Below are positions 6,064 to 63,362 of a stretch of 64,000 nt of DNA, in pieces. A program made the position numbers and the translations under genes. This DNA is from Escherichia phage EcS1, in sequence record NC_055721.1. One strand, written 5' to 3'. Within the stretch, counting starts at the first letter, position 1. The number at the start of each line of letters is the position of its first letter. A model generated the notes under the pieces. That model saw only the letters and a list, made by a program, of their open reading frames with translations. It did not search any database and was not told where the DNA came from.

Positions 6064-6440
6064 GCTGCAGTAATGGCTTTAATCGCACGTTCAGCTTGCT
6101 CTTGATTAGAGACACTGAACATCATTTCAGATTTGTCTAAAGACTGTTCAACCTGAGCTTCGCTAAGTTCAGTAAAGAATTTAGCTTCTTCGTCTAACAA
6201 CATAAAACTATGGTCAATAGACCCAATAACATCGCCAGCAGCAGAACCGTTTACAAACAAAACGTGGTCGGCATTGTCCATACTATCTAAATGTAAGACA
6301 GTGAATTCAGTGCCATTTTCTGTAATTAATCGAGATGCACTTTTATTGTAAATATGGGCATTGATAAACCCATTCACATCAGCCAGTGCATAGCGAGCAC
6401 CTAATTTAAATTCTTTAGCCATTAAATAGCTTCCTTCCAA
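6051..6440 (-). CDS. hypothetical protein
   Basis: 129-aa ORF; overlaps neighbours by a few codons as typical for T4-like early genes. Confidence 0.45.
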   Translation of the reverse strand: MEGSYLMAKEFKLGARYALADVNGFINAHIYNKSASRLITENGTEFTVLHLDSMDNADHVLFVNGSAAGDVIGSIDHSFMLLDEEAKFFTELSEAQVEQSLDKSEMMFSVSNQEQAERAIKAITAAWLN

Positions 6441-6619
6441 TAAGTTGTACCTTTCGCAGTGATATGACGAACTGCTACATAAATGGCTAAATCACCTTCA
6501 TACACATAAGCATAAGAATGATGTTCAAGACCAGAAGTTACTTCTTTCTGCACAACAGATAAGATAGGGCTGTACAGGATATCTTCAAATTGGTCTTGAG
6601 TAAGTGGTTGTTTAGACAT
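6422..6619 (-). CDS. hypothetical protein
   Basis: 65-aa ORF directly downstream of an early promoter cassette; GGAG Shine-Dalgarno before ATG. Confidence 0.45.
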   Translation of the reverse strand: MSKQPLTQDQFEDILYSPILSVVQKEVTSGLEHHSYAYVYEGDLAIYVAVRHITAKGTTYWKEAI

Positions 6620-6639
6620 TTTATATCTCCAGTTTGTTA

Positions 6640-6680
6640 GTGTAGGAACACTATACCATGTTCCTACACCGTTGTAAACA
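6640..6680 (-). promoter_or_regulatory. T4-type early promoter with embedded inverted repeat (PeSL-like cassette)
   Basis: Minus strand reads GTTTAC-18-TATAGT with TG extension; 10-bp inverted repeat GTGTAGGAAC/GTTCCTACAC flanks the -10. Confidence 0.5.
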
Positions 6681-6687
6681 CTTTAGA

Positions 6688-7086
6688 TTAAATTGTTCCG
6701 AAGTGCTTTGGTTTTGCTTTGCCTAAGTCTTCTAAGTTACTGATTTCAACCCAAGCAAAATCACCTTGGAATACAATGTTAGCATAATCACCATCAACTA
6801 GAGTACACAAAGCATACAATTCCTGGCCTTTTTGATGACCATCATTTGAGACGATGGATTCTTTTGTTTTAACATAATGTCCTTCAAGAGAAGGATTAAT
6901 AAGAGTTGCAAACTTACGACGGACATAACCTACTTGACCATTATCTGCTTTGATAACGAGTTCATCAGCAATACCACCAGCGGTAGCCCATGGACGGATA
7001 TCAAGAACTACACCTTGCAGACCTTTGATGCATGAACGAGAAGCAGAAGAAACTTGTACACGAGAACCAACAATAATATGAGACAT
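6688..7086 (-). CDS. hypothetical protein
   Basis: 132-aa ORF just downstream of dexA; no recognisable motif. Confidence 0.45.
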   Translation of the reverse strand: MSHIIVGSRVQVSSASRSCIKGLQGVVLDIRPWATAGGIADELVIKADNGQVGYVRRKFATLINPSLEGHYVKTKESIVSNDGHQKGQELYALCTLVDGDYANIVFQGDFAWVEISNLEDLGKAKPKHFGTI

Positions 7087-10395: not shown

Positions 10396-11004
10396 TCAAG
10401 GTCTTTTCGATTCTATCATAACAGTTACTTGGGTGTAAATAGAATCAATAGCTGTTTGATCTAGAATTATCAATTCACTTCCTGCTGGTATCATCCACTC
10501 ATCTTCTCTATTAACCATATCTAACTTATCACCACGGTCAGTAGTTCCAAAAGGTGAACTTCTAGGTCTAAACTCAGATTCTGGCGCAGCCAGCAACATA
10601 TTGATCATTTCTTGTTGAAAGTTAAATGCTTTAGGGGCATCTATAAGCTTTAAAATTGTACGTGTTTCATATACATAAGTGCCTGCGAACTGACGAGCCA
10701 TGGCAAAATCAGTCGTGAACGACGTAACACGATGACCAGTATTAAAAGTATCGCCAATATCAAGGTCTTGGATTTGACGTAATGTAGAGTGACTTATGCC
10801 ACGATACAATTCATCTGGGGCTCTTGATAAACGAGAAGAAATAACTTCATTCAAGTTCTCATGGAACTTAGGCAATAACTTATCATTCATACATTGCCAT
10901 AAGATACTTTGTTCCCAGTCATCATAACCTGAGATTAATTCTTCATAAAATGGGACTTTTGATTCATCAAATTCGATATAAGTATAAAGCATGATGTCCT
11001 CCAC
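10396..11004 (-). CDS. ADP-ribosyltransferase, ModA/ModB-like
   Basis: 202 aa, length and position of T4 ModA/ModB; R-S-E triad context (ELYRG, VTSFTTD, EDEWMIP). Only one mod copy present. Confidence 0.65.
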   Translation of the reverse strand: MEDIMLYTYIEFDESKVPFYEELISGYDDWEQSILWQCMNDKLLPKFHENLNEVISSRLSRAPDELYRGISHSTLRQIQDLDIGDTFNTGHRVTSFTTDFAMARQFAGTYVYETRTILKLIDAPKAFNFQQEMINMLLAAPESEFRPRSSPFGTTDRGDKLDMVNREDEWMIPAGSELIILDQTAIDSIYTQVTVMIESKRP

Positions 11005-11050
11005 AGTTAGGTTAGGAAGACATCATATCATGAGAGGATTTAAATGTAAA

Positions 11051-11245
11051 CTATTTTGCCCAGGGAGCCCAAGGCGGAGGGTCTATAAAGAGAGAAGATA
11101 ATTCTTGAGCTAATGCAGGCGAAATTGTGACACTATGTTTGAGACCTATACCGACAATTTCATCAGCAATTTCTTTAGATGATTTTGGAACCGGCTTTTC
11201 TTCCGGTTCAGACAGCATGTCAAACAAATCCATTACATGTACCAC
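11051..11245 (-). CDS. hypothetical protein
   Basis: 64-aa ORF. Confidence 0.35.
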   Translation of the reverse strand: MVHVMDLFDMLSEPEEKPVPKSSKEIADEIVGIGLKHSVTISPALAQELSSLFIDPPPWAPWAK

Positions 11246-15663: not shown

Positions 15664-15941
15664 TTAGCGAGTTCAGCGTTATCAAAAGATGCATCGCAGT
15701 ACATGTTGTAGTTCAGATTCATTGCTGCGCCTTCACCACTAATAGCAGCCATAACAGCTTTCAATGAACCTGGGTTATGAATCTCAACATTCTTACGAAC
15801 ATCAGCCCGGATTTGTGTTTCAACATCAGCTTGCGGTTCAGACATAGACCATTCGCACATATCTTTATCTAAGTTAGCCATCGCTGGCGCTGCAGAACAT
15901 GATGCAAGAGCTAAAGATAATACAACTACAATACGTTTCAT
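15648..15941 (-). CDS. sp: spackle-like periplasmic protein (signal peptide)
   Basis: From ATG 15939-15941: MKRIVVVLSLALASCSAAPAMA...DKDMCEWSM; resembles my recollection of T4 Sp; GAGGA Shine-Dalgarno. Caller start at 15971 is less likely. Confidence 0.5.
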   Translation of the reverse strand: MKRIVVVLSLALASCSAAPAMANLDKDMCEWSMSEPQADVETQIRADVRKNVEIHNPGSLKAVMAAISGEGAAMNLNYNMYCDASFDNAELAKWILG

Positions 15942-15995
15942 TTTGTTATCCTCAATTTGTTCAAACATCATACCACATCCTTGTGGTAATGTAAA

Positions 15996-17426
15996 CTAGA
16001 ATTTTAAGTTAGCAGCTAATTCATCAAGAGCACCACGGTCTACACGAGATTGACGACCAACTTCAGCTTGTTTCTGCATAGCGCCAGCAGCTTCATTTAC
16101 TGTGTTCGTCTGTGTAGGCAAATCTGTGTTCTCAACTTCATACCATCGTTGGTTACCTTTCTTAACACCTACTTGGAACTTGTTGATGTAGTTCTTATCA
16201 CCATAACGAGACTTAATCTGTTTGAATAATTGTACACCCATTTGTGCAAATTCTTCTGTCTCAATAATAGCCAGCATAAAGTCTGCTGTCGCTGGAAGAC
16301 CCGCCGATTCTGCAACGTCAGCCATATCGATATCGCTTGCGTCCCAAGCACCACGACCAACCTGAGCGCCAGTCCACAAAATTGTATTAGTTTCCACTGC
16401 GAAACCACGAAGTTCTTCTGCTACAGCTTTAACAATCGCGTAACTATTTTCACTGAATTGCTTGATACGAGAACTACCACAGATAGCCAAGTAGTCAATA
16501 ATGACAACATCAGGAACAAAGTTTGCTTTCAGTTTCAGTTCATTTAAGTAAGCACGGAATGTGTTAGCATTCGCACCACCAGTTGGATATTGTTTAATCT
16601 TTAGACGGCCAAGTGTATTACTTTCACGCCATTTTTCCATCTTAGCTTTGTATTCAGCATAAGAAATATTACCGTCATCAATATCATCTAATGTGACATC
16701 AATAAGGTTTGAGTCGATACGCTTAGCACATACTTCCTCTGCCATCTCCATGGAGATATAGAGGACATTAAGACCAGACTGTAGATAATCAGCAGCTAAT
16801 GAACAAAGTCCCAAGGACTTACCCACGTTAACCCCTGCCATCAATACGTTTAATGTCTTACGTTCGGCACCACCTTTAGTGATACGGTTCAGAATATTCA
16901 GACGGAATGGAATCTTAGCTGTCTTGTTTTGATACGATTCCCAACGTTCTTCATAATCATCCATCCAGTCATGACCAAGTTCAGCATCAAAACAAATAGC
17001 CAATGCGTCACGCATGATGTCTGGTATTGCGCCTACATCAGGAAGTTTTTTATTCTGTTTATCTTTCGGCAGATCGGCATTAGTCTGGATTTCAATAATA
17101 CGAGAAGTGGCATTATACATAGCCGCTTTTTGGACATATTTCTCAGTTTCTTTAACTAACCAATCTTGGTCCTCATTAGTCATAGCCAATGAGCCAAGAA
17201 GATTCTTAGCGCCAGAAACTTCTACTTCAGATGCAGTACTATTGTCTAAAGCGATGTCTAAAGCATTTTTAGTAGGGATGACAGAGTATTCATTTACATG
17301 TTCTTTCATTACTTTGAATAGAGTCTGTGCAGGACCCGAATCAAAATAGTCTGCAGCCATATAAGGCCACACCTTTGTAAAATACCCTTGGTTAAAGAGT
17401 AATTGGGCTAAAATTGTTTCTACCAC
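15996..17426 (-). CDS. 41: replicative DNA helicase gp41 (DnaB-like)
   Basis: 476 aa; Walker A GVNVGKS, RecA-like core; length and position of T4 gp41. Confidence 0.9.
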   Translation of the reverse strand: MVETILAQLLFNQGYFTKVWPYMAADYFDSGPAQTLFKVMKEHVNEYSVIPTKNALDIALDNSTASEVEVSGAKNLLGSLAMTNEDQDWLVKETEKYVQKAAMYNATSRIIEIQTNADLPKDKQNKKLPDVGAIPDIMRDALAICFDAELGHDWMDDYEERWESYQNKTAKIPFRLNILNRITKGGAERKTLNVLMAGVNVGKSLGLCSLAADYLQSGLNVLYISMEMAEEVCAKRIDSNLIDVTLDDIDDGNISYAEYKAKMEKWRESNTLGRLKIKQYPTGGANANTFRAYLNELKLKANFVPDVVIIDYLAICGSSRIKQFSENSYAIVKAVAEELRGFAVETNTILWTGAQVGRGAWDASDIDMADVAESAGLPATADFMLAIIETEEFAQMGVQLFKQIKSRYGDKNYINKFQVGVKKGNQRWYEVENTDLPTQTNTVNEAAGAMQKQAEVGRQSRVDRGALDELAANLKF

Positions 17427-23098: not shown

Positions 23099-24777
23099 TA
23101 GATAGGTTCCCACTGATGTTTGATATCACCACCGACAGGACGATATTCTACACCAGTTTCTTTATCAAGCAGAACCCATTTGCCTGGGTTCTTAGTGATT
23201 AACGTAGCCACAACCGGTTCAGCTTCATCAAATGAAACTGTATCATCTTGAAGTCTACGGCCCATTTTACGTAACTGTTTTGTTAGTAGCATCATGCCAT
23301 AATAATATGCAGCAGTTGCTTTCAATGGGTTGTTCTTGAAATAACCACCAAGTGCAATCCAAATAATGGCTACAGCAAGATGATGATATTCATTGAACAT
23401 ATCAGTCTTTTCATATTTGTATACTAAAGGAGCAATATTGACCCAAGCATTTTCATCATCAATGGTAAGGCCACCCCAAGCATGATTAGCATTAAAACTA
23501 TCATAGCCAGAAATAGCATAAAGAACTTTTGCTTCATCATACAAACGAGGGCCATAAATTTCAGTCTCGCCAAAGTAGCCACGAGGGTCAATGAACCGGA
23601 CTTTGCCGTCATATTGAATCATGGTATTGCTAAAGTTAGGGTCACCATGAATAACTGAATACTGACGGCCTTGAGTTTCATGATGATGATAAATCAAATG
23701 AGATAATGCTTGTTTGAGCATTGGTTTCAAACGTCCAAGTTTAACACCATTAACATGGGTTATTTTGCCGAATGAATTCACTACACCTTGAATACTTTCG
23801 CAACGGTCAATAACCTTAGTGTAGAACTCTTTAGTGAAGTCACGTTCAATTGTATTTTCAGAAGCATATACTTCATTACCAAAGTTTAATGCTTCAAGAA
23901 TGTCTTCAATTTTATTAAACTGGTGGTCTGCTGGTAAACCGTACAACCATTCAAATGCTGGAAGACCTTTAATGCGTTCCATTACAAAACTATTTTCTGT
24001 AACGGCTTCGATAAATGGTGTAGCATCAGAACTAACTGAACGATACCAAGATAGTTCTTTCTCTTGGAGTTTTTTACCTTGCTCAGTTACTGCAATCTTT
24101 TCTACAGTATGTTCATGCATTTCAACAGAGTTAAAACTACGGTTCAGTTCACGATCTTTGTGCGCGTCATGAAGCTTAATCATATCACCTAAATCAATAA
24201 GATTTAGAAGTTCAGAATAAGTGAATACTTTAGGGTAGATAAATTCTACAAAGTCTCGTCCACGACAAGCATCATGAATTTCTTCTTTGCTTTCGCCTTG
24301 CCAGAATTCCCAATCTCTGAATTGATAGATTCCAACTACGTTACCACCAGTGTCACCTACGTTTTTAATTGAATCACCGTCGAACTTATAACGACATTCA
24401 TTACCTTTAACATAGATCGCATTTTGGTCCCAAGACCATGAACCAAAGTCAGGAATAATGTCGCACCAGTTAACGATTACATTATGACCTTCAAGGAACT
24501 TACTCATCGTAGCTAATGCATAAGCAGAACCGTATGCTTCATCTACTGTATGAACAATGATATTCAAACCTTCTTGTTCGGCATAAGCCACTACAGTTTC
24601 AGCGAATTTTGAATGCACGACTACATAAATTTCATCTGCACCAAGGTCTGCATAGATGTCATGCAAGTTCTTTAAGATTGTATGTTGTTTGTAGTTAACC
24701 AACACCTTTGGGATATGATGTGTAACTGGATACAAACGAGTTGCTAATCCAGCTCCTAGAATAACTGCCTTTTTCAT
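23098..24777 (-). CDS. bifunctional sugar-1-phosphate nucleotidylyltransferase / APH-type sugar kinase
   Basis: 559 aa; N-terminal MKKAVILGAGLATRLYP (RmlA/MurU-like); C-terminal IHGDPNFSNTM and FIDPRG (aminoglycoside/choline-kinase fold). Confidence 0.65.
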   Translation of the reverse strand: MKKAVILGAGLATRLYPVTHHIPKVLVNYKQHTILKNLHDIYADLGADEIYVVVHSKFAETVVAYAEQEGLNIIVHTVDEAYGSAYALATMSKFLEGHNVIVNWCDIIPDFGSWSWDQNAIYVKGNECRYKFDGDSIKNVGDTGGNVVGIYQFRDWEFWQGESKEEIHDACRGRDFVEFIYPKVFTYSELLNLIDLGDMIKLHDAHKDRELNRSFNSVEMHEHTVEKIAVTEQGKKLQEKELSWYRSVSSDATPFIEAVTENSFVMERIKGLPAFEWLYGLPADHQFNKIEDILEALNFGNEVYASENTIERDFTKEFYTKVIDRCESIQGVVNSFGKITHVNGVKLGRLKPMLKQALSHLIYHHHETQGRQYSVIHGDPNFSNTMIQYDGKVRFIDPRGYFGETEIYGPRLYDEAKVLYAISGYDSFNANHAWGGLTIDDENAWVNIAPLVYKYEKTDMFNEYHHLAVAIIWIALGGYFKNNPLKATAAYYYGMMLLTKQLRKMGRRLQDDTVSFDEAEPVVATLITKNPGKWVLLDKETGVEYRPVGGDIKHQWEPI

Positions 24778-38761: not shown

Positions 38762-38995
38762 TTATCTAGTTAAAAGGTACAACAAACGCACGGCTTCATT
38801 ATTACTTACATTAATGCCTAGTTTTTTAAGTCCTATAATAAATGGTGTTTTGTTTACCGTATTATCCAGCATAAAACTATCTAAAATATAACCAACTGTA
38901 ACAACATCAGAAAGAAGGTCATATGTCAAATAAACGATAGAACCATTATGTTCGACCTGCATGTTTTTTGTTGAACGTTTGATTTCAAAGGTCAT
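38762..38995 (-). CDS. hypothetical protein
   Basis: 77-aa ORF. Confidence 0.35.
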   Translation of the reverse strand: MTFEIKRSTKNMQVEHNGSIVYLTYDLLSDVVTVGYILDSFMLDNTVNKTPFIIGLKKLGINVSNNEAVRLLYLLTR

Positions 38996-39002
38996 AAAGT
39001 CC

Positions 39003-39299
39003 TCACATCAGATGCTTGTAGACTTCACGAACAAGAAGGTCTAATTCTGTAGGAAAAACATCGCTAATTAAAGCACAGCAAGCATTAGCAATACGTTGAG
39101 GGTTTTGATGAGCTTGTATAGTACAGACTTCAGTCATGCAAGAACGAGCACGCAAAACAACTTGAGTGTCATCAATTTCAACATACAAACGTTCTTGTCC
39201 ACGGGATTCAGAGCGAATCAAGATAGATAATTCAATTTTCTTGGATTTAGATATGATGACCATGTTAACTCCTTTGTTTATGTAGGAACATCTTAACAT
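39003..39299 (-). CDS. hypothetical protein
   Basis: 98-aa ORF; likely start MVIISKSK. Confidence 0.35.
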   Translation of the reverse strand: MLRCSYINKGVNMVIISKSKKIELSILIRSESRGQERLYVEIDDTQVVLRARSCMTEVCTIQAHQNPQRIANACCALISDVFPTELDLLVREVYKHLM

Positions 39300-39328
39300 G
39301 AAGAAGGGTGCTTGTAAACACCCTTTGA

Positions 39329-43349: not shown

Positions 43350-43797
43350 TTAATAGACCTTCTAAATGAACAATATATTCAGCAGCTTTCTGCATAGTGT
43401 CATATTCTTCTGAATCACAATTTTCTTGTCCAGCGAATGCACGTAATGCCATACTGATAGGAACGATTTTACCACCAAAATGATTAAGCTTAATCTCATT
43501 CATACCAGCAACTGGATCCCCATGACCAATTTCTTGAAGCTCTGACAAAATATTATCGTTACACCAGAAACAGTAGAACCAAGAATCAGGGTTATCAATA
43601 ATACGAATGACTTTAGCTGTGTCTAAACAAATGACAGATGTAATAACTAAACGAGTTCCGCTATAGCCATCTTCAGCATCAGTTAAGACTTGGAAACGAA
43701 AGCCTTTAACAAGTTCAGGGAACTGTTTAATAAGTTCTTCGTCTTCTTTAATAACTTCGTATTGTTTACCAACTAAAGATTCCATTTTTATCCTCAT
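43336..43797 (-). CDS. hypothetical protein (pin/49.x position)
   Basis: 153-aa ORF. Confidence 0.4.
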   Translation of the reverse strand: MRIKMESLVGKQYEVIKEDEELIKQFPELVKGFRFQVLTDAEDGYSGTRLVITSVICLDTAKVIRIIDNPDSWFYCFWCNDNILSELQEIGHGDPVAGMNEIKLNHFGGKIVPISMALRAFAGQENCDSEEYDTMQKAAEYIVHLEGLLNAKS

Positions 43798-43905
43798 AAT
43801 CTAAGAGTTCATTTTCTGTAGGCTCATCATAACACACTTCAGAATCTTTGTAAACCTCTTCAGGCTCTGGCTCGACAGTTTCCCATCGAGCCGAATACCA
43901 TGGCT

Positions 43906-45673: not shown

Positions 45674-45961
45674 TCATTGTGTAGCTCGTTTATATGCTTC
45701 GTGAGCAGCTACTGCAACTTTGTCGTCTTGACATAATTTCGTTTCTGGTTGTTTAGCCAGATAATGAAACGCTAGTGACTTAAGCTTGATTATTGAAAAT
45801 GCTACATTAGTCTGGGTAGTAGATAATAAATTAATGAAATCAGCATGTTCGCCATTATCTTCGGCTTCTTGCAAGAACATTTTGCAAACAACACTGTCTA
45901 ACTCTTTAAAAAGAGCATTCATTTCATCAGAGCGCTTGAGATTAGTATCAAATGGATTCAT
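45674..45961 (-). CDS. hypothetical protein
   Basis: 95-aa ORF. Confidence 0.4.
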   Translation of the reverse strand: MNPFDTNLKRSDEMNALFKELDSVVCKMFLQEAEDNGEHADFINLLSTTQTNVAFSIIKLKSLAFHYLAKQPETKLCQDDKVAVAAHEAYKRATQ

Positions 45962-46485
45962 TACTTCACCTCTGGAAATACTTGAGCGATACGAACCTTG
46001 ATAGCTTCATCAAGAATAGTTGTCCACGCATTATTGATGCGATTACGAATCAGTTCATCAATTTTATTTTCGTTTTGACTGATGACATGCAGAATATGAT
46101 GCTCAAGCTTTTTATTAGCTCGTTGGGCTTGGTCAACAAGATAATCTTGAATTGCATTAGATGCAATCTTTTCAGCTTCTTCGCGAATCTTAAAATTAGC
46201 AATATCAGAAGCTTGAATACCTTTCCAACCTTGGTCAGACAGTAGTTTATTCATTTGCTTATTGACTTCATCTTTAACAGAAGGAATATCAACAGGGTGT
46301 GCCTTAATTTCTTCTTTAATTAAGGTAGACACACGGTTATTTGTGTCTTTCAAAATCAAGTCTTTAGTGATGTTCTGAATAACAGAACGACGAAGGTTAA
46401 CTTGAGCTTCAGTTCCTTCAGGGAACAATTGGCGTACTGCATGTGTATCAAGAGACATACTAATCATTTTAATCCTCGAAATCAA
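45961..46485 (-). CDS. hypothetical protein
   Basis: 174-aa ORF; caller start is TTG, ATG at 46465-46467 is likelier; its start lies in copy 1 of the 126-bp tandem repeat. Confidence 0.4.
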   Translation of the reverse strand: MISRIKMISMSLDTHAVRQLFPEGTEAQVNLRRSVIQNITKDLILKDTNNRVSTLIKEEIKAHPVDIPSVKDEVNKQMNKLLSDQGWKGIQASDIANFKIREEAEKIASNAIQDYLVDQAQRANKKLEHHILHVISQNENKIDELIRNRINNAWTTILDEAIKVRIAQVFPEVK

Positions 46486-46716
46486 TTTTAATATCAGGGC
46501 GACCCATTTTACTCATAATAAGTTTAAGCAAATCACCTTCGTTAAAAGATGAACTACTACAACACGAAGCATGAGGTGTGAGATCGTCATCATTTTAATC
46601 CTCGAAATCAATTTTAATATCAGGGCGACCCATTTTACTCATAATAAGTTTAAGCAAATCACCTTCGTTAAAAGATGAACTACTACAACACGAAGCATGA
46701 GGTGTGAGATCGTCAT
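46465..46716. repeat. perfect 126-bp tandem duplication (2 copies)
   Basis: 46465-46590 and 46591-46716 are identical base for base; the unit spans the 3' end of ORF 46595-46852 and the start of ORF 45961-46485. Confidence 0.9.
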
Positions 46717-46852
46717 ATTCTACGCCATCAATTATAATGTTGTATCCTTCGGCATCGTTACTACAGCCTAATTCGCATTCACTATAATCATAAAGTTTCT
46801 GTACTTTAATATTCATCATTGTCCTCAAAAGCAGAAGGTTTAGCAATACCAA
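46595..46852 (-). CDS. hypothetical Cys-containing protein
   Basis: 85-aa ORF; C-terminal about 40 codons lie in copy 2 of the tandem repeat. Confidence 0.4.
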   Translation of the reverse strand: MVLLNLLLLRTMMNIKVQKLYDYSECELGCSNDAEGYNIIIDGVEYDDLTPHASCCSSSSFNEGDLLKLIMSKMGRPDIKIDFED

Positions 46853-48593: not shown

Positions 48594-49406
48594 TTAGGCC
48601 TCATTAAACACTACTGAAGAAGGACGTTTGAAGAAAGAATGAGTGTTATCATCTTTAGCATGTTCAAACGTTGCTTTGAATTCGATTTCACCACGATAAT
48701 CAGCTGGAACTGCCTTTGGCAGAGAACCATAAACCGTGGCACCATTTTCTAAACGAACTGTCATCTTAAAGACAGGACCGTAGATATCCATCCAATCTTT
48801 AACTGAGACAACAATTCCTTTCACCACTAATTTACCCACAGGAGCTTCGCCTTTGTTGGCTTTCAATGATTCATAATAGTTATTGAACCATTGTTCAGAG
48901 TGTGCCTGAATCGCTTTCAGGATGTTCTTGTGGGCTCTTACTTCAACCATACCCACACGAGTTTCACCTAAGTCCCATAGTTTGTATGGAGCTTTCATTT
49001 CAATAAAGTTGAATGCTTTAAGTTCTAAGTACATATTAAAAGTTAAGCGCAGCTTCCACCAACCATGATCGCCTGTGTACTCAGGTTTATCCATTGACTC
49101 AAGTTCAGTAACATATGGAAGATAACTACCAGCATGATATGCTTCAACTTCACCTAATTCATTTTCCCACAAGTAGCCATCAAATGGAGCATGTGGACGA
49201 TCATCTTTACCCCAAGTAGGGCTAACACAACGATCAAATGAATCACGGCCATATTTTGATTTAGTCCAACCTGCATTTAATTCATATGCACGTTGTTCAA
49301 CACGTTTTCGTTGAGCTCTGTAAGCTGCACGATTTTCTTCGATTAAATCAGAAACGATTTTAGTTAGCATTTTATTCTCCTTGTTGGTGTAGGAGCATAA
49401 TACCAC
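48594..49406 (-). CDS. hypothetical protein
   Basis: 270-aa ORF; likely start MLTKIV at about 49369 with GGAG upstream. Confidence 0.45.
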   Translation of the reverse strand: MVLCSYTNKENKMLTKIVSDLIEENRAAYRAQRKRVEQRAYELNAGWTKSKYGRDSFDRCVSPTWGKDDRPHAPFDGYLWENELGEVEAYHAGSYLPYVTELESMDKPEYTGDHGWWKLRLTFNMYLELKAFNFIEMKAPYKLWDLGETRVGMVEVRAHKNILKAIQAHSEQWFNNYYESLKANKGEAPVGKLVVKGIVVSVKDWMDIYGPVFKMTVRLENGATVYGSLPKAVPADYRGEIEFKATFEHAKDDNTHSFFKRPSSVVFNEA

Positions 49407-49426
49407 GTTCCTACACCATTGTAAAC
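49385..49426 (-). promoter_or_regulatory. T4-type early promoter with embedded inverted repeat (PeSL-like)
   Basis: Coding strand GTTTAC-18-TATTAT; inverted repeat GGTGTAGGA.../...TCCTACACC, same arms as the 6640 site. Confidence 0.5.
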
Positions 49427-49428
49427 AC

Positions 49429-49635
49429 TTAGTTCACTACTATGTAAATCATCCATCCAGGCCAGAAGAACATCATAGACAGAGTCAATAGGTTACGTTT
49501 AAGTTTTTGATGCCATTCACGACACATGTGATCAGGCATACCTAAAGCCCAAGCACTAAGACACATGAAGTAAAAACCTGTGCCTAGATACACACATACA
49601 CCAAGGAAAATCAAAGCCATAATAATTGGAGTCAT
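49429..49635 (-). CDS. small membrane protein
   Basis: 68 aa, two hydrophobic segments. Confidence 0.4.
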   Translation of the reverse strand: MTPIIMALIFLGVCVYLGTGFYFMCLSAWALGMPDHMCREWHQKLKRNLLTLSMMFFWPGWMIYIVVN

Positions 49636-51527: not shown

Positions 51528-51654
51528 CAGGCTGAAGATTCAGTTCAAAGCCACCTTCTACTTTAGAGATTTCAGTTACGACTGCTGACCATTCAGCAAC
51601 CACTCCAAACCAAATTACATCACCAACTTTAACTTCATTGATAGGCTTTAACAT
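51448..51654 (-). CDS. hypothetical protein
   Basis: 68-aa ORF downstream of an early promoter cassette. Confidence 0.4.
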   Translation of the reverse strand: MLKPINEVKVGDVIWFGVVAEWSAVVTEISKVEGGFELNLQPDDAIWQGWQFFDNNYQARFYSYKRGK

Positions 51655-51671
51655 TTTATTCTCCGGTTCGT

Positions 51672-51713
51672 TTCAGTACAGCCATCATACCATGTACAAT
51701 GGCTGTTGTAAAC
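51672..51713 (-). promoter_or_regulatory. T4-type early promoter with embedded inverted repeat (PeSL-like)
   Basis: Coding strand GTTTAC-18-TATGAT; inverted repeat ACAGCCAT/ATGGCTGT flanks the -10. Confidence 0.45.
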
Positions 51714-52007
51714 TTATAAATTCACTAATCTTTCTCGATCACCACGCCAACTAAGATCAATAGGAATCTTGTGATAAGAAGCAATATCATTTCTATTAGC
51801 CAATAATTTAGAGACCTTAACTTGGGTGTCTTTAATCAATTCCTGAAGTCTTTCACTTGTGGCTGATGGGTTATATTCCTTTTCTATAAAAGAGTCCAGA
51901 ATCATCTTCTCAACTAACGATTTGAACTGTTCTTCAATAAGGTCCGATAAAGGACCTTTTTCGTATTGAGCTTTATTACCAAATACATCTTTACCAGTTT
52001 TAAGCAT
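51714..52007 (-). CDS. hypothetical protein
   Basis: 97-aa ORF. Confidence 0.4.
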   Translation of the reverse strand: MLKTGKDVFGNKAQYEKGPLSDLIEEQFKSLVEKMILDSFIEKEYNPSATSERLQELIKDTQVKVSKLLANRNDIASYHKIPIDLSWRGDRERLVNL

Positions 52008-52013
52008 AAATCC

Positions 52014-52992
52014 TCATTTCAACATTGTTACTTCAGCGATTTCCATCCAGTTATCATGGTCAGTAGCTACGAAGTCTGCTACATAAAGAGCCGTACGGAG
52101 TGAGACGTTACGAAGACGATTAACGTTAGACTTCATCCATTGTAAAGCTTCGATTGTTTCACTGTTTGATAAGCCACGTTTCTGCAACATATCTGTGTTC
52201 ATGATTACATCTTCAACGCGAACCATGATTTCTTCGTTTGAATGAACACCAAGGTCCAAATAAACAGAACGTGAAACCAGAGCTGCAAGATGTGGAGCAA
52301 GTTTAGAACCACGTTCTAATTCTTTGTCAACATCAACGTTAGTGATGAACACAACAGTTCCAGCAAATTCGAATTCTTTATCGATGTCTTTGTCATCAAG
52401 ATAAGACGAAGCAGTGCTCCAACAAACTTTACGAGTCTCACCAGTGTCTAAAGCAGCTTTCAGAAGGTTCAGGATATCCATGTCAGAGAAGATATCAACA
52501 TCATCAATCAGAAGCACATTACCTTCTTCTTTATTGTTCCAGAGTTGTTCGTAGAGACCGATACCTGAAATTTTGCCATTAATGCTTTTGAAAACAATAT
52601 CACCTTTTGCATCAGCACGTTTTAGAGCTTTCTCAAGGCTGTATGTCTTACCAATACCTGCAGCACCAGAGATGATTAAAGAACGAATGTTACCATTTAT
52701 GATACCAGTTGTCATCATGTTCATTACGTTAAAGCGCTTAGTGATACGAGCTTTCATTTCTTCAACTGATTCAACTTCCAGTGGAGAAGTTTCAACACCT
52801 TCCATTTCGATATCAGTTTTGAACACCCATACACCACGTTCTTTGCCATCGATTTGAACGAATACTTTGCCATCTCCCAAGTGTGCTTCATGAGCTGGAA
52901 CCATGTCCGGGAACCAAGTACGAGAAGCAATGTATTTACCAGAGATTTCGTTACCGCGGTAAGTACCTTTATTGATTTGAACGTTGAACATT
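52014..52992 (-). CDS. P-loop ATPase (AAA-like) with N-terminal unknown domain
   Basis: Walker A ISGAAGIGKTY, Walker B LLIDDVD; likely start ATG 52990-52992 (MFNVQINKG) with GGAG upstream. Confidence 0.5.
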
Positions 52993-53012
52993 TTATTTCT
53001 CCAAGTAAGTCT

Positions 53013-53057
53013 GTTTTGTTTCGATGTAGCTATAATAACATGTTTGAAGCAGATGTA
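53013..53057. repeat. 45-bp conserved upstream element, copy A (MotA-box-like TGCTTCA)
   Basis: Differs at one position from copy B at 53509-53553; lies upstream of ORF 52014-52992. Confidence 0.7.
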
Positions 53058-53062
53058 CACAC

Positions 53063-53491
53063 TTATTTGCAAAGATTCCACTGAATCAAAGTATATTTTT
53101 CGTTGTAACCAGCTTTTTCCATTTGAGCAGCAAATTCTTCAAAGTTTTTAGAAGATTCAAAGAAATTCACAGCCAATTTAGTAGGCTTAGCAACACGTTT
53201 TTCAGATTTAACTTCAACTGCTTTAACAACTTCAACCACTGGAGCTGATTCAATGATATCACATGAACCATCTGAATAACGAGCCCATACTTCGTTACCA
53301 ACTTTAAACATTGCTGCTTTACGACCGTTAGGCATTTCTACCATTTTACCTTTCAACTTAGTTACTTCAGTAATAACTTTGTCACCATACTCTTCAAAAC
53401 GATCTTTAGCCATTACGCCATCAGTAGAAGCAATCATTGGGAAGTTGAAATGGTAATAAGCAAAATTACGAATTGCATAATAAGTTTTCAT
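53063..53491 (-). CDS. hypothetical protein
   Basis: Likely start MKTYYAIRN at 53489-53491. Confidence 0.4.
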   Translation of the reverse strand: MKTYYAIRNFAYYHFNFPMIASTDGVMAKDRFEEYGDKVITEVTKLKGKMVEMPNGRKAAMFKVGNEVWARYSDGSCDIIESAPVVEVVKAVEVKSEKRVAKPTKLAVNFFESSKNFEEFAAQMEKAGYNEKYTLIQWNLCK

Positions 53492-53508
53492 TTTTAACTC
53501 CATTTACT

Positions 53509-53553
53509 TGTTTTGTTTCGATGCAGCTATAATAACATGTTTGAAGCAGATGT
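53509..53553. repeat. 45-bp conserved upstream element, copy B
   Basis: tgttttgtttcgatgcagctataataacatgtttgaagcagatgt; upstream of ORF 53063-53491. Confidence 0.7.
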
Positions 53554-53569
53554 GTACTTTTATTTTTGC

Positions 53570-53612
53570 AAATCTAAAAATAAATGCCCGAAAGGGACCA
53601 CAAAGGTCCCTT
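53570..53612 (-). terminator. rho-independent terminator
   Basis: A-rich run then gggacc-acaaa-ggtccc hairpin downstream of ORF 53615-53896. Confidence 0.5.
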
Positions 53613-53614
53613 TA

Positions 53615-57411: not shown

Positions 57412-57705
57412 TTACCTCAATTGTGAGTCTTTTGACCCACGGCGGTTGTAGTAGCTTTTAACCATGTTATCAGCCTTGCTTTGACATTCAACACAAAGTA
57501 GACAACCACGAACAGCCTGACGACGAGCCAAAGGAATAGGTTCATCACAATCCTCACAGAATTCATTACTTTCACGTTTTGAAGCAATTTCTAATTCAAG
57601 GCGAGCCCAAGAAACTGCATCATCGATAACGGCTTCACGAGTAGCAAAACCTTCATCACTTGGACCCCATCCGTTCATTATAAGTTCTCCTGATTGAGAG
57701 GACAT
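57412..57705 (-). CDS. DksA/TraR-family C4 zinc-finger protein
   Basis: CEDCDEPIPLARRQAV.GCLLCVECQ; real start probably the second ATG (MNGWGP, about 57678), since the first ATG lies inside the promoter -10. Confidence 0.55.
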   Translation of the reverse strand: MSSQSGELIMNGWGPSDEGFATREAVIDDAVSWARLELEIASKRESNEFCEDCDEPIPLARRQAVRGCLLCVECQSKADNMVKSYYNRRGSKDSQLR

Positions 57706-57745
57706 CTTATAATGACCTCTCTGTGTTGTAAACTAGTCTTCGTAC
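57700..57745 (-). promoter_or_regulatory. T4-type early promoter (GTTTAC-18-TAAGAT) with inverted repeat
   Basis: gtaaac at 57728-57733, -10 at 57704-57709; inverted repeat GAGAGG/CCTCTC around the -10. Confidence 0.45.
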
Positions 57746-58200
57746 CAAAAATCAGACCAATCGTTCATTTCTTGTTGCTCAAAATGGTCTTGAGCAGTTA
57801 TACGTTCAGCATAAGCAGCATCATCAGGGTCACTGAACTTGTCATCACGAAGTTCCTGAAGGAACATCATAGCATCTTCTTTAGAAGGCATGACTCGGTT
57901 CAAGTTATGAGCAGAACGATGTTGATGAGCACCATCAAATACACCACAATCAGCAATTGATGTTTCGGTTTCATAAGAACGTTCTTCACCATCTGACATA
58001 TAAACACAGATAATCTTAACAAACATAGCAGTATATGGTGTTGAACTATGAGTACCTAAAGCAACTGGATAAGGCTTACTCAAGATAATGTATTTGCTGA
58101 TTTCAGATTCATCAACTTTAGTGTTAGTACGATTAACTCCGTACACATGATACATGATACGACCTGGGTAGAACTCGGAAACAGATTTGATACGTTTCAT
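57733..58200 (-). CDS. hypothetical protein
   Basis: Likely start ATG 58198-58200 (MKRIKSV); the caller's longer ORF runs through promoter and terminator. Confidence 0.4.
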   Translation of the reverse strand: MKRIKSVSEFYPGRIMYHVYGVNRTNTKVDESEISKYIILSKPYPVALGTHSSTPYTAMFVKIICVYMSDGEERSYETETSIADCGVFDGAHQHRSAHNLNRVMPSKEDAMMFLQELRDDKFSDPDDAAYAERITAQDHFEQQEMNDWSDFWYED

Positions 58201-58230
58201 TTTAATTTCCTCAGTTTGTTTCAGTAGGTC

Positions 58231-58260
58231 TATAGTATCACGTCCCTCGAGGATGTAAAC
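58231..58260 (-). promoter_or_regulatory. T4-type early promoter (GTTTAC-17-TACTAT)
   Basis: gtaaac at 58255-58260; CTCGAGG palindrome in the spacer. Confidence 0.4.
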
Positions 58261-58264
58261 ATCT

Positions 58265-58297
58265 AAACAAAAAGGCACTCCTCTTTTGAGAAGTGCC
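58265..58297 (-). terminator. rho-independent terminator
   Basis: A-run then ggcactcctc-tttt-gagaagtgcc hairpin downstream of ORF 58303-58683. Confidence 0.5.
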
Positions 58298-61093: not shown

Positions 61094-61291
61094 TTATACA
61101 CCTATTACGTCAAGAAGCTCTTTATACACAGAAGCTAATTCATCAGCGGATTCTTTAACTAATTGACTAGGCCCTTCCATTGATTGATACTGATGGTCTT
61201 TAGCTGCATCAATTAGTCGATCAATAACTTCACAAATCATAGCATGTTCTTCATCAGATCGTGTGCTCATATCCATTGGACCCTTAAACAA
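61094..61291 (-). CDS. hypothetical protein
   Basis: 65-aa ORF (TTG start per caller). Confidence 0.3.
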   Translation of the reverse strand: MFKGPMDMSTRSDEEHAMICEVIDRLIDAAKDHQYQSMEGPSQLVKESADELASVYKELLDVIGV

Positions 61292-61506: not shown

Positions 61507-61939
61507 TATTAGGTGTGAACATATTGATTAATGCTTCAACTTTAGTCCAATCACCACCTGCAATACCACATCCAATACGAGGCATATAGATTTGAGGAAT
61601 ACAAATCTGATTCTCGGCCCATTTGTTCAATTCTATCAAAGAATCTACTAATGCACCATAGCGTAAATCAGGCCCAGCATAATATTGAGTATAAAGATTA
61701 AAGCAAATATTTTCTTGCTTATTGAAGCGAGTGCTTAATACGGCTTTAGTAAAGGTACCAAGTTTTCGGATATCAGCAAAATCTGTATCTTTGTCAATAG
61801 CTTCAATAGGATAATAAGCTTTAGCTAATTGACCCGCTATGCCACCACCCATTGTATGGAAACAGTTACAGCCATGAGCGATATTTTTACCTGAAAGAAA
61901 CAAGGCGACGATGTCGCCTTTAATATATTTTGTAATCAT
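61448..61939 (-). CDS. macro-domain protein (ADP-ribose binding/hydrolase-like)
   Basis: 163 aa; HGCNCFHTMGGGIAGQ and RIGCGIAGG resemble the macro-domain glycine-rich motifs. Confidence 0.5.
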   Translation of the reverse strand: MITKYIKGDIVALFLSGKNIAHGCNCFHTMGGGIAGQLAKAYYPIEAIDKDTDFADIRKLGTFTKAVLSTRFNKQENICFNLYTQYYAGPDLRYGALVDSLIELNKWAENQICIPQIYMPRIGCGIAGGDWTKVEALINMFTPNIDVVIVDWAPNENTLSTPI

Positions 61940-62927: not shown

Positions 62928-63306
62928 AAGAGCTAGCCGTTTGACCTTTGTCTACTGTCATACCAAGCCACAAGTTGCGGTCAGTAATTTCGAGACGGAG
63001 TGGACGATATTCTACACCAGGAAGAATATGATCTTCAATATCAGGCAATGGTTTCAGACGTAGATATTCTACGACATCAACCACTTTTCTGTGAAGTTTA
63101 TGGAACAAGTTGAACACATAAGTTTCGTCGATTTCACGTTGGATAGCACGGTCCAATAGATGAGGTGAATACTTAAGGTGAAAAACTTCTTTTATACCAT
63201 ATTCTTTACAGGCCTTTTTAAGTTCAGCATTGATTGAGTTAAACTCCGTTTCAAAGATACGACGGAGTTTGTTACGACGGATATAAACACTAGAATCAAT
63301 AGACAT
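62848..63306 (-). CDS. regB: endoribonuclease RegB
   Basis: 152 aa; VYIRRNKLRR.FE.EF..IN.E...A.K..G...FHLKYS.HLLDRAIQREIDETYVF.LFHK matches my recollection of T4 RegB. Confidence 0.9.
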   Translation of the reverse strand: MSIDSSVYIRRNKLRRIFETEFNSINAELKKACKEYGIKEVFHLKYSPHLLDRAIQREIDETYVFNLFHKLHRKVVDVVEYLRLKPLPDIEDHILPGVEYRPLRLEITDRNLWLGMTVDKGQTASSYGLTCRMAFINNKRLEGKISTKVIDL

Positions 63307-63333
63307 TTTCTTCTCCTTTGTTTGTGTAAGGTC

Positions 63334-63362
63334 ATCTTAACACATCCTTAGGAGAAGTAAAC
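63334..63362 (-). promoter_or_regulatory. T4-type early promoter for regB (GTTTAC-17-TAAGAT)
   Basis: gtaaac at 63357-63362, -10 at 63334-63339, about 28 nt upstream of the regB ATG. Confidence 0.45.

Follow-up and report, generated by a model that had tools for sequence, protein, structure and literature searches.

Stem-loops over and beside predicted early promoters in intergenic cassettes of the T4-like Escherichia phage EcS1

We analyzed a stretch of 64,000 nucleotides of Escherichia phage EcS1 (sequence record NC_055721.1; hereafter the window), in which several gaps between early genes are occupied by short cassettes that combine a predicted promoter, a stem-loop and the Shine-Dalgarno (SD) sequence of the next gene, an arrangement described as promoter early stem-loop (PeSL) elements in T4-type phages. 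All long open reading frames (ORFs) of the window are on the minus strand. The window starts with rIIA and was collinear with Serratia phage X20 (Straboviridae, Tevenvirinae, Winklervirus) over the first ~62 kb of the latter, at a nucleotide identity of ~80%. Other Serratia, Erwinia and Kosakonia phages were at a distance similar to that of X20, and the window, which is the early-gene arm of a T4-like phage, thus has no close relative in the phage collection. A megablast search with positions 39001–64000 returned one phage record whose best place was at least 99% identical, presumably over a short piece only. We identified 12 cassettes. Nine of them lie at 39–64 kb, in the nrdC-tk-vs-regB region with its small ORFs, a hyperplastic setting typical of PeSL elements, and Pfam matches were absent in seven of the nine downstream or flanking proteins scanned. 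A scan of the whole window against Rfam matched no family.

The promoters were recognized by a common motif. Searching both strands of the window, we found ten matches to GTTTAC-N16-19-TANNAT versus 0.96 expected, and all ten were on the minus strand. Site 6679, with the -10 element TATAGT, is an eleventh that falls outside this pattern, and sites 53060 and 53557, which have the variants GTGTAC and GTACAC, bring the total to 12 cassettes. The initial annotation, made from the sequence alone, had listed at least six such promoters on the coding strand and held that they would be doubtful if the motif were equally frequent inside coding sequence; the coding (minus) strand proved to carry 12 cassettes, and only one exact match (at 23939) was located inside a gene. 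The order of parts is shared: GTTTAC or a close variant, 17–18 nt, a TAnnnT -10 element (often with a TG-type extension), a start region (T)CCTACA that begins 2–3 nt beyond the -10, a leader rich in A and C (aAACAAA), GGAG with an A-rich tract behind it, and ATG. Each cassette makes up the entire intergenic gap, with the stop codon of the preceding gene at one end and the SD and ATG of the following gene at the other. The stop codon is -1 to 57 nt from the -35 element, and in 8 of the 12 cassettes it overlaps this element or is at most 2 nt away, e.g., taGTTTAC. In T4 numbering, GTTTAC occupies -36 to -31 and the -10 element -12 to -7 (PMC1524935). By this spacing, transcription would start at the A of CCT-A-CA (predicted +1), 7 nt beyond the -10 element, and the predicted leader is 19–34 nt long and ends with GGAG or GAGG and ATG. 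The SD of cassettes 49426 and 51713 (GGAGAATAAAA) is an exact match to the cleavage consensus of T4 RegB/S1, GGAGRAYARAA, GGAGAAUAAAA (PMC1702504). We consider the 12 sites to be predicted T4-type early promoters for the host σ70 RNA polymerase.

In four cassettes, all on the minus strand, an inverted repeat straddles the -10 element. Cassette 6679 (6617–6690) extends from a TAA stop codon (6688–6690) to the ATG (6617–6619) of a cef homolog (6425–6619; Pfam T4_Cef, E=2.8e-29). In T4-type numbering, its -35 element GTTTAC (6674–6679) is followed, within the promoter spacer, by the 5' arm GTGTAGGAAC (6660–6669, ~-26 to -17); the -10 element TATAGT (6650–6655) is located in the hairpin loop; and the 3' arm GTTCCTACAC (6640–6649, ~-6 to +4) holds CCTACA with the predicted +1 at A 6643. 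The GGAG of its SD (6627–6630), with the A-rich tract, is a RegB/S1-type site by consensus. Cassette 49426 (49368–49437) is built in the same way, with the -35 at 49421–49426, the 5' arm GGTGTAGGAAC at 49407–49417, the -10 TATTAT at 49397–49402, the 3' arm GCTCCTACACC at 49386–49396, the predicted +1 at 49390, the SD at 49370–49380 and the ATG at 49368–49370. Cassette 51713 (51652–51716; -35 at 51708–51713, -10 TATGAT at 51684–51689, predicted +1 at 51677, ATG at 51652–51654) has a perfect 8-bp repeat, ACAGCCAT (51699–51706) with ATGGCTGT (51678–51685), which at the RNA level becomes a 13-bp helix (51694–51706 with 51678–51690) in which the -10 element falls in the 3' arm. The fourth, cassette 57733 (57676–57733; -35 at 57728–57733, -10 TAAGAT at 57704–57709, ATG at 57676–57678), precedes a gene for a DksA/TraR-type zinc-finger protein and has the arms GAGAGG (57716–57721) and CCTCTC (57696–57701). 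In all four, the 3' arm ends ~5–20 nt before the SD, which is not sequestered there. An inverted repeat of 8–10 bp bracketing the -10 element had been assigned to each of six sites; it is present at 6679, 49426 and 51713 and, in a looser form, at 57733, absent at 58260, and replaced at 63362 by a pairing of the spacer with the SD that reaches beyond the segment first recognized. The two arms of 6679 and 49426, which had been reported to be identical, are so for one arm (GTTCCTACAC on the plus strand), and the other differs at one of ten positions (GTGTAGGAAC versus GTGTAGGAGC). What the two cassettes share as 3' arm is the general start-site motif (T)CCTACA; cassettes 39319, 43855, 58260 and 63362 carry it too, but have no spacer complementary to it.

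We compared these repeats with shuffled sequences. When cassette RNA folds were scored against dinucleotide shuffles, z was between -2.8 and -5.4 at six cassettes: 6679 (-23.8 kcal/mol, z=-5.4, or -5.0 in a second fold computation), 49426 (-5.3), 51713 (-4.8), 39319 (-3.9), 63362 (-3.9) and 11051 (-2.8). The values were -2.1 for 57733, -1.3 for 15996 and -0.8 for 43855. Folds of -18.8 kcal/mol or lower were obtained for 6 of 11 cassettes versus 3.8% of 72-nt minus-strand background windows. In a stricter test, only the spacer was shuffled and a perfect stem was required to have its 5' arm in the spacer and its 3' arm at or after the -10 element. Cassette 6679 had 11 perfect bp (GTGTAGGAACA/TGTTCCTACAC, P=0.0005), 49426 had 10 perfect bp and further pairs (P<0.0005), 51713 had 8 (13 counting G.U; P=0.0005), and 57733 had 6 (10 with one mismatch; P=0.05). 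Perfect stems of at least 8 bp over the -10 element were thus found at three sites versus 0.04 expected from spacer shuffles. Such stems were scarcely enriched among 145 unrelated IMG/VR promoters of the form GTTTACA-N14-TGGTATNAT (4 versus 1.15 expected, two of the four coming from the window itself), suggesting that the repeat straddling the -10 element is specific for this lineage. Two unrelated environmental viral contigs had promoters of the type GTTTACA...TGGTATAAT that were straddled by a repeat, one of 13 bp (AAGCTCCCATAAT/ATTATGGGAGCTT; locus L088, 4279–4340, plus strand) and one of 7 bp (locus L101), and promoter-straddling hairpins therefore occur sporadically outside this lineage too.

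Stem-loops were present in 11 of the 12 cassettes, as is characteristic of PeSL elements, and their position varied: over the -10 element at four sites, over the -35 at one, within the spacer at one (weak), upstream of the promoter at three, and, at two further sites (63362 and 11051), between the spacer or -10 element and the SD. In cassette 39319 (39261–39325; -35 at 39314–39319, -10 at 39290–39295, ATG at 39261–39263), a 7-bp hairpin, AAGGGTG (39319–39325) with CACCCTT (39304–39310), brackets the -35 element. Cassette 15996 (15939–15996; -10 at 15967–15972) has a 5-bp hairpin inside the spacer, CCACA (15982–15986) with TGTGG (15973–15977). The upstream form was observed in cassette 58260 (58198–58297; -35 at 58255–58260, -10 at 58232–58237, ATG at 58198–58200), in which an intrinsic terminator at 58274–58297 (GGCACTTCTC-AAAA-GAGGAGTGCC and five T residues; 10-bp stem) is located 14 nt upstream of the -35; in cassette 53557 (53489–53613; -10 at 53529–53534, ATG at 53489–53491), in which a hairpin at 53591–53613 (AAAGGGACC/GGTCCCTTT) is followed by a T-rich tail; and in cassette 43855 (43783–43892; -35 at 43850–43855, -10 at 43826–43831, ATG at 43783–43785), with a stem-loop at 43869–43892 (GGCTCGATGG/CTGTCGAGCC). 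The position of the hairpin follows the room between the stop codon and the -35 element: the three cassettes with 42–57 nt between them have an upstream hairpin in this gap, and in cassettes whose stop codon adjoins the -35 the hairpin is on the promoter itself. In the latter, the arms occupy the spacer and the discriminator/+1 region, the segments least constrained by a σ70 promoter, and leave the extended -10 in the loop. The 5' arms are located at ~-27 to -17 or directly after the -35, and the 3' arms extend to between -1 and +6 or to the SD, with loops of 3–14 nt (~32 nt in the SD-pairing form). The +1 predicted by spacing is downstream of every 5' arm.

The two SD-pairing cassettes have a different geometry. 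In cassette 63362 (63304–63362; -35 at 63357–63362, -10 TAAGAT at 63334–63339, predicted +1 at 63327, ATG at 63304–63306), which precedes a regB homolog, the spacer segment CTTCTCCT (63350–63357) pairs over 8 bp with AGGAGAAG (63310–63317), the SD itself, across a loop of ~32 nt. In cassette 11051 (10990–11051; -35 at 11046–11051), the -10 element and discriminator (TATGATGTCTTCC, 11015–11027) pair with the SD and start codon (GGAGGACATCATG, 10990–11002) over 13 bp, including two G.U pairs. The predicted hairpins would thus sequester the SD at 63362 and both the SD and the ATG at 11051. The 11051 pairing is not conserved in X20, whose ortholog has only 5 bp, and is less certain. For regB, we compared ten distinct variants, i.e., the window, X20/CHI14 (X20 record, 61120–61180) and eight IMG/VR variants (loci L191–L203). 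In all ten, the bases just after the -35 element pair with the SD region over 8–15 bp, and the pairings differ in sequence: CTTCTCCT/AGGAGAAG, ATCCTCATTTG/CAAATGAGGAT, ATCTCCTTTTAGT/ACTAAAAGGAGAT, CTCCTCTTG/CAAGAGGAG, TTTCTCCTCT/AGAGGAGAAA and TTTTCCTCTTGACTG with CAGTTAAGAGGAGAA. The last of these variants is 100% identical to Tequatrovirus genomes, including the T4 derivative T4_ev240. The pairing was found by folding each sequence singly; RNAalifold on MAFFT-aligned regB cassettes did not reveal it because the stems shift register between phages. A pairing of this kind, with loops of ~26–32 nt, is sensible only as RNA.

One explanation of the stem-loops is that they are true terminators of the upstream transcripts, which would make each cassette an insulated terminator-plus-promoter unit. 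This is the published reading of PeSL elements, and one stem-loop of RB49 reduced downstream lacZ expression as much as rrnB T1 did (PMC2839356), a drop that is equally explicable by RNA processing or translation effects. In the window, a G+C-rich hairpin with a U-run was found just upstream of the promoter at 58274–58297 and, more loosely, at 53591–53613, and only there. The hairpins that overlap promoters precede A-rich leaders (AACAAA...) rather than T-runs, and none passed a simple intrinsic-terminator scan; without a T-run, canonical intrinsic termination is unlikely. Moreover, the large loops of the SD-pairing form (~32 nt in the window and 26 nt in X20) are not terminator-like. We regard termination as the general role of the cassettes as a possible but doubtful explanation, and hairpins that straddle a -10 element should not be annotated as terminators. 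Two other structures of the window resembled terminators. The most stable 72-nt fold of the window (-28.4 kcal/mol; AAAGGACATGG...CCATGTCCTTTTTTG), at ~2729–2800 on the minus strand near ORF 2769–2921, looks like a strong intrinsic terminator, and a hairpin at 61902–61920 (AAGGCGAC-ATC-GTCGCCTT), within an array of co-directional genes, was flagged as terminator-like on both strands.

Comparison with X20 linked the cassettes to gene gain and loss. BLAST left ~29 unaligned gaps between the two genomes, three of which coincide with cassettes; 4 of 58 gap edges were at cassettes versus ~1.2 expected by a rough estimate, a modest excess. The clearest case involved two directly repeated cassettes, 53557 upstream and 53060 downstream (52989–53068; -35 GTGTAC at 53055–53060, -10 at 53032–53037, ATG at 52989–52991), the latter located before an nrdC.10 homolog. 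The copies at 53012–53068 and 53509–53565 (repeat family D5) are 91% identical and flank an ORF of 142 amino acids (53078–53508). X20 has no such ORF and has a single cassette in its place. The left part of the X20 cassette (upstream hairpin and TTTCGGGCATTTA) corresponds to the upstream copy of the window and the right part (...AAACAAAACAGACTT...GGAG) to the downstream copy, and this chimera is the product expected from recombination between direct repeats. Homologs of the ORF (81% amino acid identity) are present in the same place in Kanagawavirus PEi20 and PEi26 and in Klebsiella phage KLB31, suggesting that X20 most likely lost it. Cassettes 6679 and 49426 are also similar to each other (88% identity; over 50–57 nt for both pairs of copies), a degree of identity sufficient for recombination, as in PeSL elements. 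A second event is ORF 51714–52006, which is absent from X20; its insertion point is exactly at the junction of the nrdC.10 stop codon with the G of GTTTAC (51713/51714). At 6613/6614, at the cef ATG, nucleotide identity of ~82% in the promoter and upstream flank gives way to a Cef protein that is only 44% identical to that of X20; gene replacement was ruled out at this site since Cef is present in both phages, and the change is a sharp drop of identity only. A separate feature of the small-ORF region is a 126-nt unit that is tandemly duplicated in perfect register at 46454–46705 (two copies, 97% identical), near ORFs 45961–46485 and 46595–46852.

The location of breakpoints at cassettes and the chimeric cassette of X20 could also mean that the repeats act as single-stranded or cruciform DNA, e.g., as recombination hot-spots or targets of an endonuclease VII-type enzyme, and serve gene shuffling rather than expression. 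A recombination protein that binds stem-loops was raised as a possibility by the authors of the PeSL study (PMC2839356). However, the clean event (53060/53557) used two cassettes without a repeat over the promoter, with the crossover in their shared promoter and leader sequence, so that plain homology suffices. Arms of 8–11 bp with loops of 8–10 nt extrude poorly as cruciforms, which also argues against such a role, and the pairing with the SD would make no sense in DNA. We therefore consider this explanation improbable.

The helices were conserved as structures. Orthologs of most cassettes are present in X20. In the ortholog of 6679, GGAAC/GTTCC is changed to GGAGC/(a)CTCC (A-T to G-C); in that of 51713, a U.G pair opposite the G of the -10 element is changed to C-G; and in that of 57733, an internal T/T mismatch is changed to G.U. 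The 39319 arrangement is identical in X20 (at 38975), and the CCACAaggaTGTGG of 15996 occurs at two X20 promoters. Queries of IMG/VR with cef and its upstream gene returned no orthologs of cassette 6679, the X20 ortholog being the sole one available for comparison. For 49426, the downstream gene was fetched from 21 T4-like loci in IMG/VR and the cassette upstream of it was read. A 6–13-bp helix across the -10 element was kept in 14 of 20 distinct variants, with at least five different arm sequences (GGTGTAGGA..., GGTGTAAGAT, GGCGAGGC, TACGAGATT or GAGGAC). Pairs were counted in a gapless alignment of 20 orthologous or paralogous sequences, including those without the helix, and in controls in which the 3' partners were slid by 1–3 columns. 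Paired cells amounted to 80% versus 30–46% in the slid controls, compensatory cells to 39 versus 1–17, and the covariation score to 0.48 versus 0.06–0.18; 8 of 12 pairs were changed on both sides. The observed values were reached by 0 of 500 shuffles on four of five measures and by 30 of 500 for pairs changed on both sides; as the aligned sequences are related, these counts are not probabilities, but the difference from the slid controls is large and the same position is taken by unrelated arm sequences. These data show that the promoter-overlapping helix is maintained as a structure, in which complementarity rather than sequence is conserved.

These comparisons also bear on two proposals of the initial annotation that were not borne out. 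The first was a recent cassette transfer between 6679 and 49426. Both cassettes have X20 orthologs with the same arms; one ortholog pair has TATAGT and an ACTGGAG leader and the other has TATTAT and a shorter leader, each cassette being nearer to its ortholog than to its paralog, and many T4-like genomes have the 49426 helix in front of the same gene as well. Because each of the look-alike cassettes groups with its own X20 ortholog, their resemblance is old. The second was an operator for a sequence-specific regulator, e.g., a dimeric phage or host protein that binds the arms in duplex DNA around the -10 element and shuts off or activates the early promoters. Repeats that straddle a -10 element are in the classic position for a repressor, the arms are nearly identical at two sites, and the shut-off of T4 early promoters has been described as incompletely understood (PMC3014915). 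However, the arms differ between sites (GTGTAGGAAC, ACAGCCAT, GAGAGG and CTTCTCCT) and, as shown above, between orthologs, with complementarity kept by compensatory changes, which argues for a structure and not for a sequence-specific operator. A palindromic operator should have a recurrent half-site and spacing; the cassettes have at least five unrelated arm sequences and variable loops (3–14 nt, and ~32 nt when the SD is paired). In addition, G.U-type positions are tolerated, in half of the cassettes the -10 element is not spanned by a repeat, and the shared 3' arm is a general start motif that also occurs without a partner. An operator function is thus very unlikely. It is also very improbable that the repeats are chance by-products of conserved promoter sequence with no function of their own: the 3' arm is indeed a conserved promoter/start motif, the unrelated IMG/VR promoters were barely enriched in such stems and some orthologs have lost the helix, but the spacer has no known reason to match the start region, yet does so with P≤0.0005 at three sites, and complementarity was maintained through two-sided changes across genera.

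The cassettes are real, non-random and evolutionarily maintained, and they are very probably composite elements of the PeSL type, in which the hairpin is placed where there is room, would act in read-through RNA and is joined to a sequence that also supports recombination. In order, such a cassette consists of the upstream stop codon, a predicted early σ70 promoter with an 18-nt spacer and extended -10, CCT-A(+1)-CA, an unstructured A/C leader, a GGAG SD that in many cases fits the RegB/S1 cleavage consensus, and ATG. Since the predicted +1 falls within the 3' arm or at its 3' end, RNA initiated at the cassette's own promoter would lack the 5' arm and form no hairpin, and the hairpin would be possible only in RNA that reads through from upstream. 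Each gene junction may thus have one punctuation hairpin that functionally belongs to the upstream transcript and that genome compaction has superimposed on the promoter of the next gene. The hairpins that straddle the -10 element probably attenuate read-through, as one RB49 PeSL does, and/or, once the leader or SD has been cleaved, shield the 3' end of the upstream message from exonucleases. At regB, and possibly at 11051, the SD serves as the 3' arm, which in read-through RNA would hide both the ribosome-binding site and the RegB site; regB would then be translated only from RNA of its own promoter, following the logic of T4 genes e and I-TevI. Finally, because the cassettes share sequence, they also serve as sites of homologous recombination, by which small ORFs between cassettes are inserted or deleted.

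Several observations weigh against this interpretation. Cassette 58260 has no repeat across the -10 element (3 bp; z=+0.1) and 53060 has no hairpin (z=-0.1), with nothing over its -10, and 6 of the 20 distinct 49426 variants have lost the helix, which is thus dispensable. Approximately 26 of the 29 indels relative to X20 are away from any recognized cassette. The AT content at -60 to -37 was 0.42–0.88, with a mean of ~0.66 versus 0.63 in the genome; upstream AT-richness is weak because the stretch 5' of the -35 is mostly the terminal part of the preceding coding sequence. The predicted start sites were placed solely by spacing, and the attenuator role goes back to a single reporter experiment with RB49, whose G/C-tract stems are unlike those of the window; the failure of all promoter-overlapping hairpins in the terminator scan points in the same direction. 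Action at the RNA level is suggested, but not proven, by the helix positions of the 49426 orthologs that are not Watson-Crick pairs, among which G.U (15) exceeded A.C (7). Strand asymmetry was also tried as a test of RNA versus DNA and was uninformative: the sense strand folded better by ~2.4 kcal/mol, and random windows showed an equal bias (2.0 kcal/mol) due to base composition.

An early promoter inside a hairpin could be a general T4-like way to mark the origin of a transcript, in which RNA from the gene's own promoter is open, translated and sensitive to RegB, and read-through RNA is masked or capped. We offer this generalization tentatively. Its clearest candidate is the regB pairing, which compensatory changes have preserved in all T4-like genomes examined. 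Self-cleavage at the regB SD is a known control, and the pairing would add a further layer to it; a literature search that did not extend to the primary regB papers found no description of this pairing. Unless experiments confirm that the hairpins distinguish transcripts by origin, the advance over existing knowledge is modest. Apart from this, the compensatory changes across genera are comparative evidence that the helix is under selection, which the accessible parts of the original PeSL descriptions do not contain, and the 53060/53557 pair is a clean natural example of ORF gain or loss through recombination of flanking cassettes. The intergenic units are predicted to be strong, portable promoter/leader modules, and in comparisons or engineering of related phage genomes they point to likely breakpoints.

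The closest known systems are the PeSL elements of RB49 and phi1 (Arbiol et al. 2010; PMC2839356). The initial annotation had already assigned the cassettes to the PeSL elements of T4-type phages; the published make-up of such elements, and gaps relative to X20 at three cassettes, support this assignment. As in the window, the RB49/phi1 elements consist of an intergenic stop codon, a σ70-type early promoter, a stem-loop, an SD and an ATG, have G-T pairs in their stems and precede small ORFs in variable regions, where recombination of flanking cassettes inserts or deletes an ORF and leaves a chimera (PMC2839356). Their stem-loops are mostly between the -35 and -10 elements or over the -10, and also over the -35, upstream, or downstream of the -10; all five published positions occur in the window. 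All PeSL structural features tested were found, except that the AT-rich upstream tract is weak in the window, where the upstream gene reaches the -35 element. Other differences are the -35 element (T4-type GTTTAC versus a near-perfect TTGACA in RB49/phi1), the stems, which in the window are made of (T)CCTACA and its complement in the spacer rather than of polyG/polyC tracts, and the pairing of the SD with the spacer or -10 in two cassettes, a form outside the five published subclasses. PeSL elements of PST/T4 and nt-1/KVP40 (Comeau et al. 2014; PMC4122927) have the promoter consensus TTTACW-N17-TAYWAT, as in the window, and are associated with indels between close phages. The stem-loops of PST/T4 are just upstream of the promoter, as at 58260, 53557 and 43855, whereas most of those in the window overlap the promoter.

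The SD-pairing cassettes have a counterpart in T4 genes e and I-TevI (and Aeh1 mobE), in which a hairpin masks the ribosome-binding site and carries a promoter within its 5' strand, so that only promoter-proximal transcripts are translated; the RNA structure also blocks RegB (PMC3014915). The geometry is that of the regB cassette and of 11051, where masking is predicted from sequence. However, the known cases use late (gp55) promoters (TATAAATA) and delay expression, whereas the internal promoters of the window are of the early σ70 type (GTTTAC...TAnnnT), and the four hairpins that straddle the -10 element stop short of the SD. The cassettes therefore resemble this type of masking at two sites without being members of the e/I-TevI family. 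With Rho-independent terminators they share a stable hairpin at a cistron end, and 58260 and 53557 carry such hairpins beside their promoters; in contrast, no T-run follows the promoter-overlapping hairpins, and the loops of some are very large. The cassettes are thus a solid example of the PeSL type already described rather than a new type, and extend this architecture from RB49/phi1, PST/T4 and nt-1/KVP40 to the Winklervirus-like branch.

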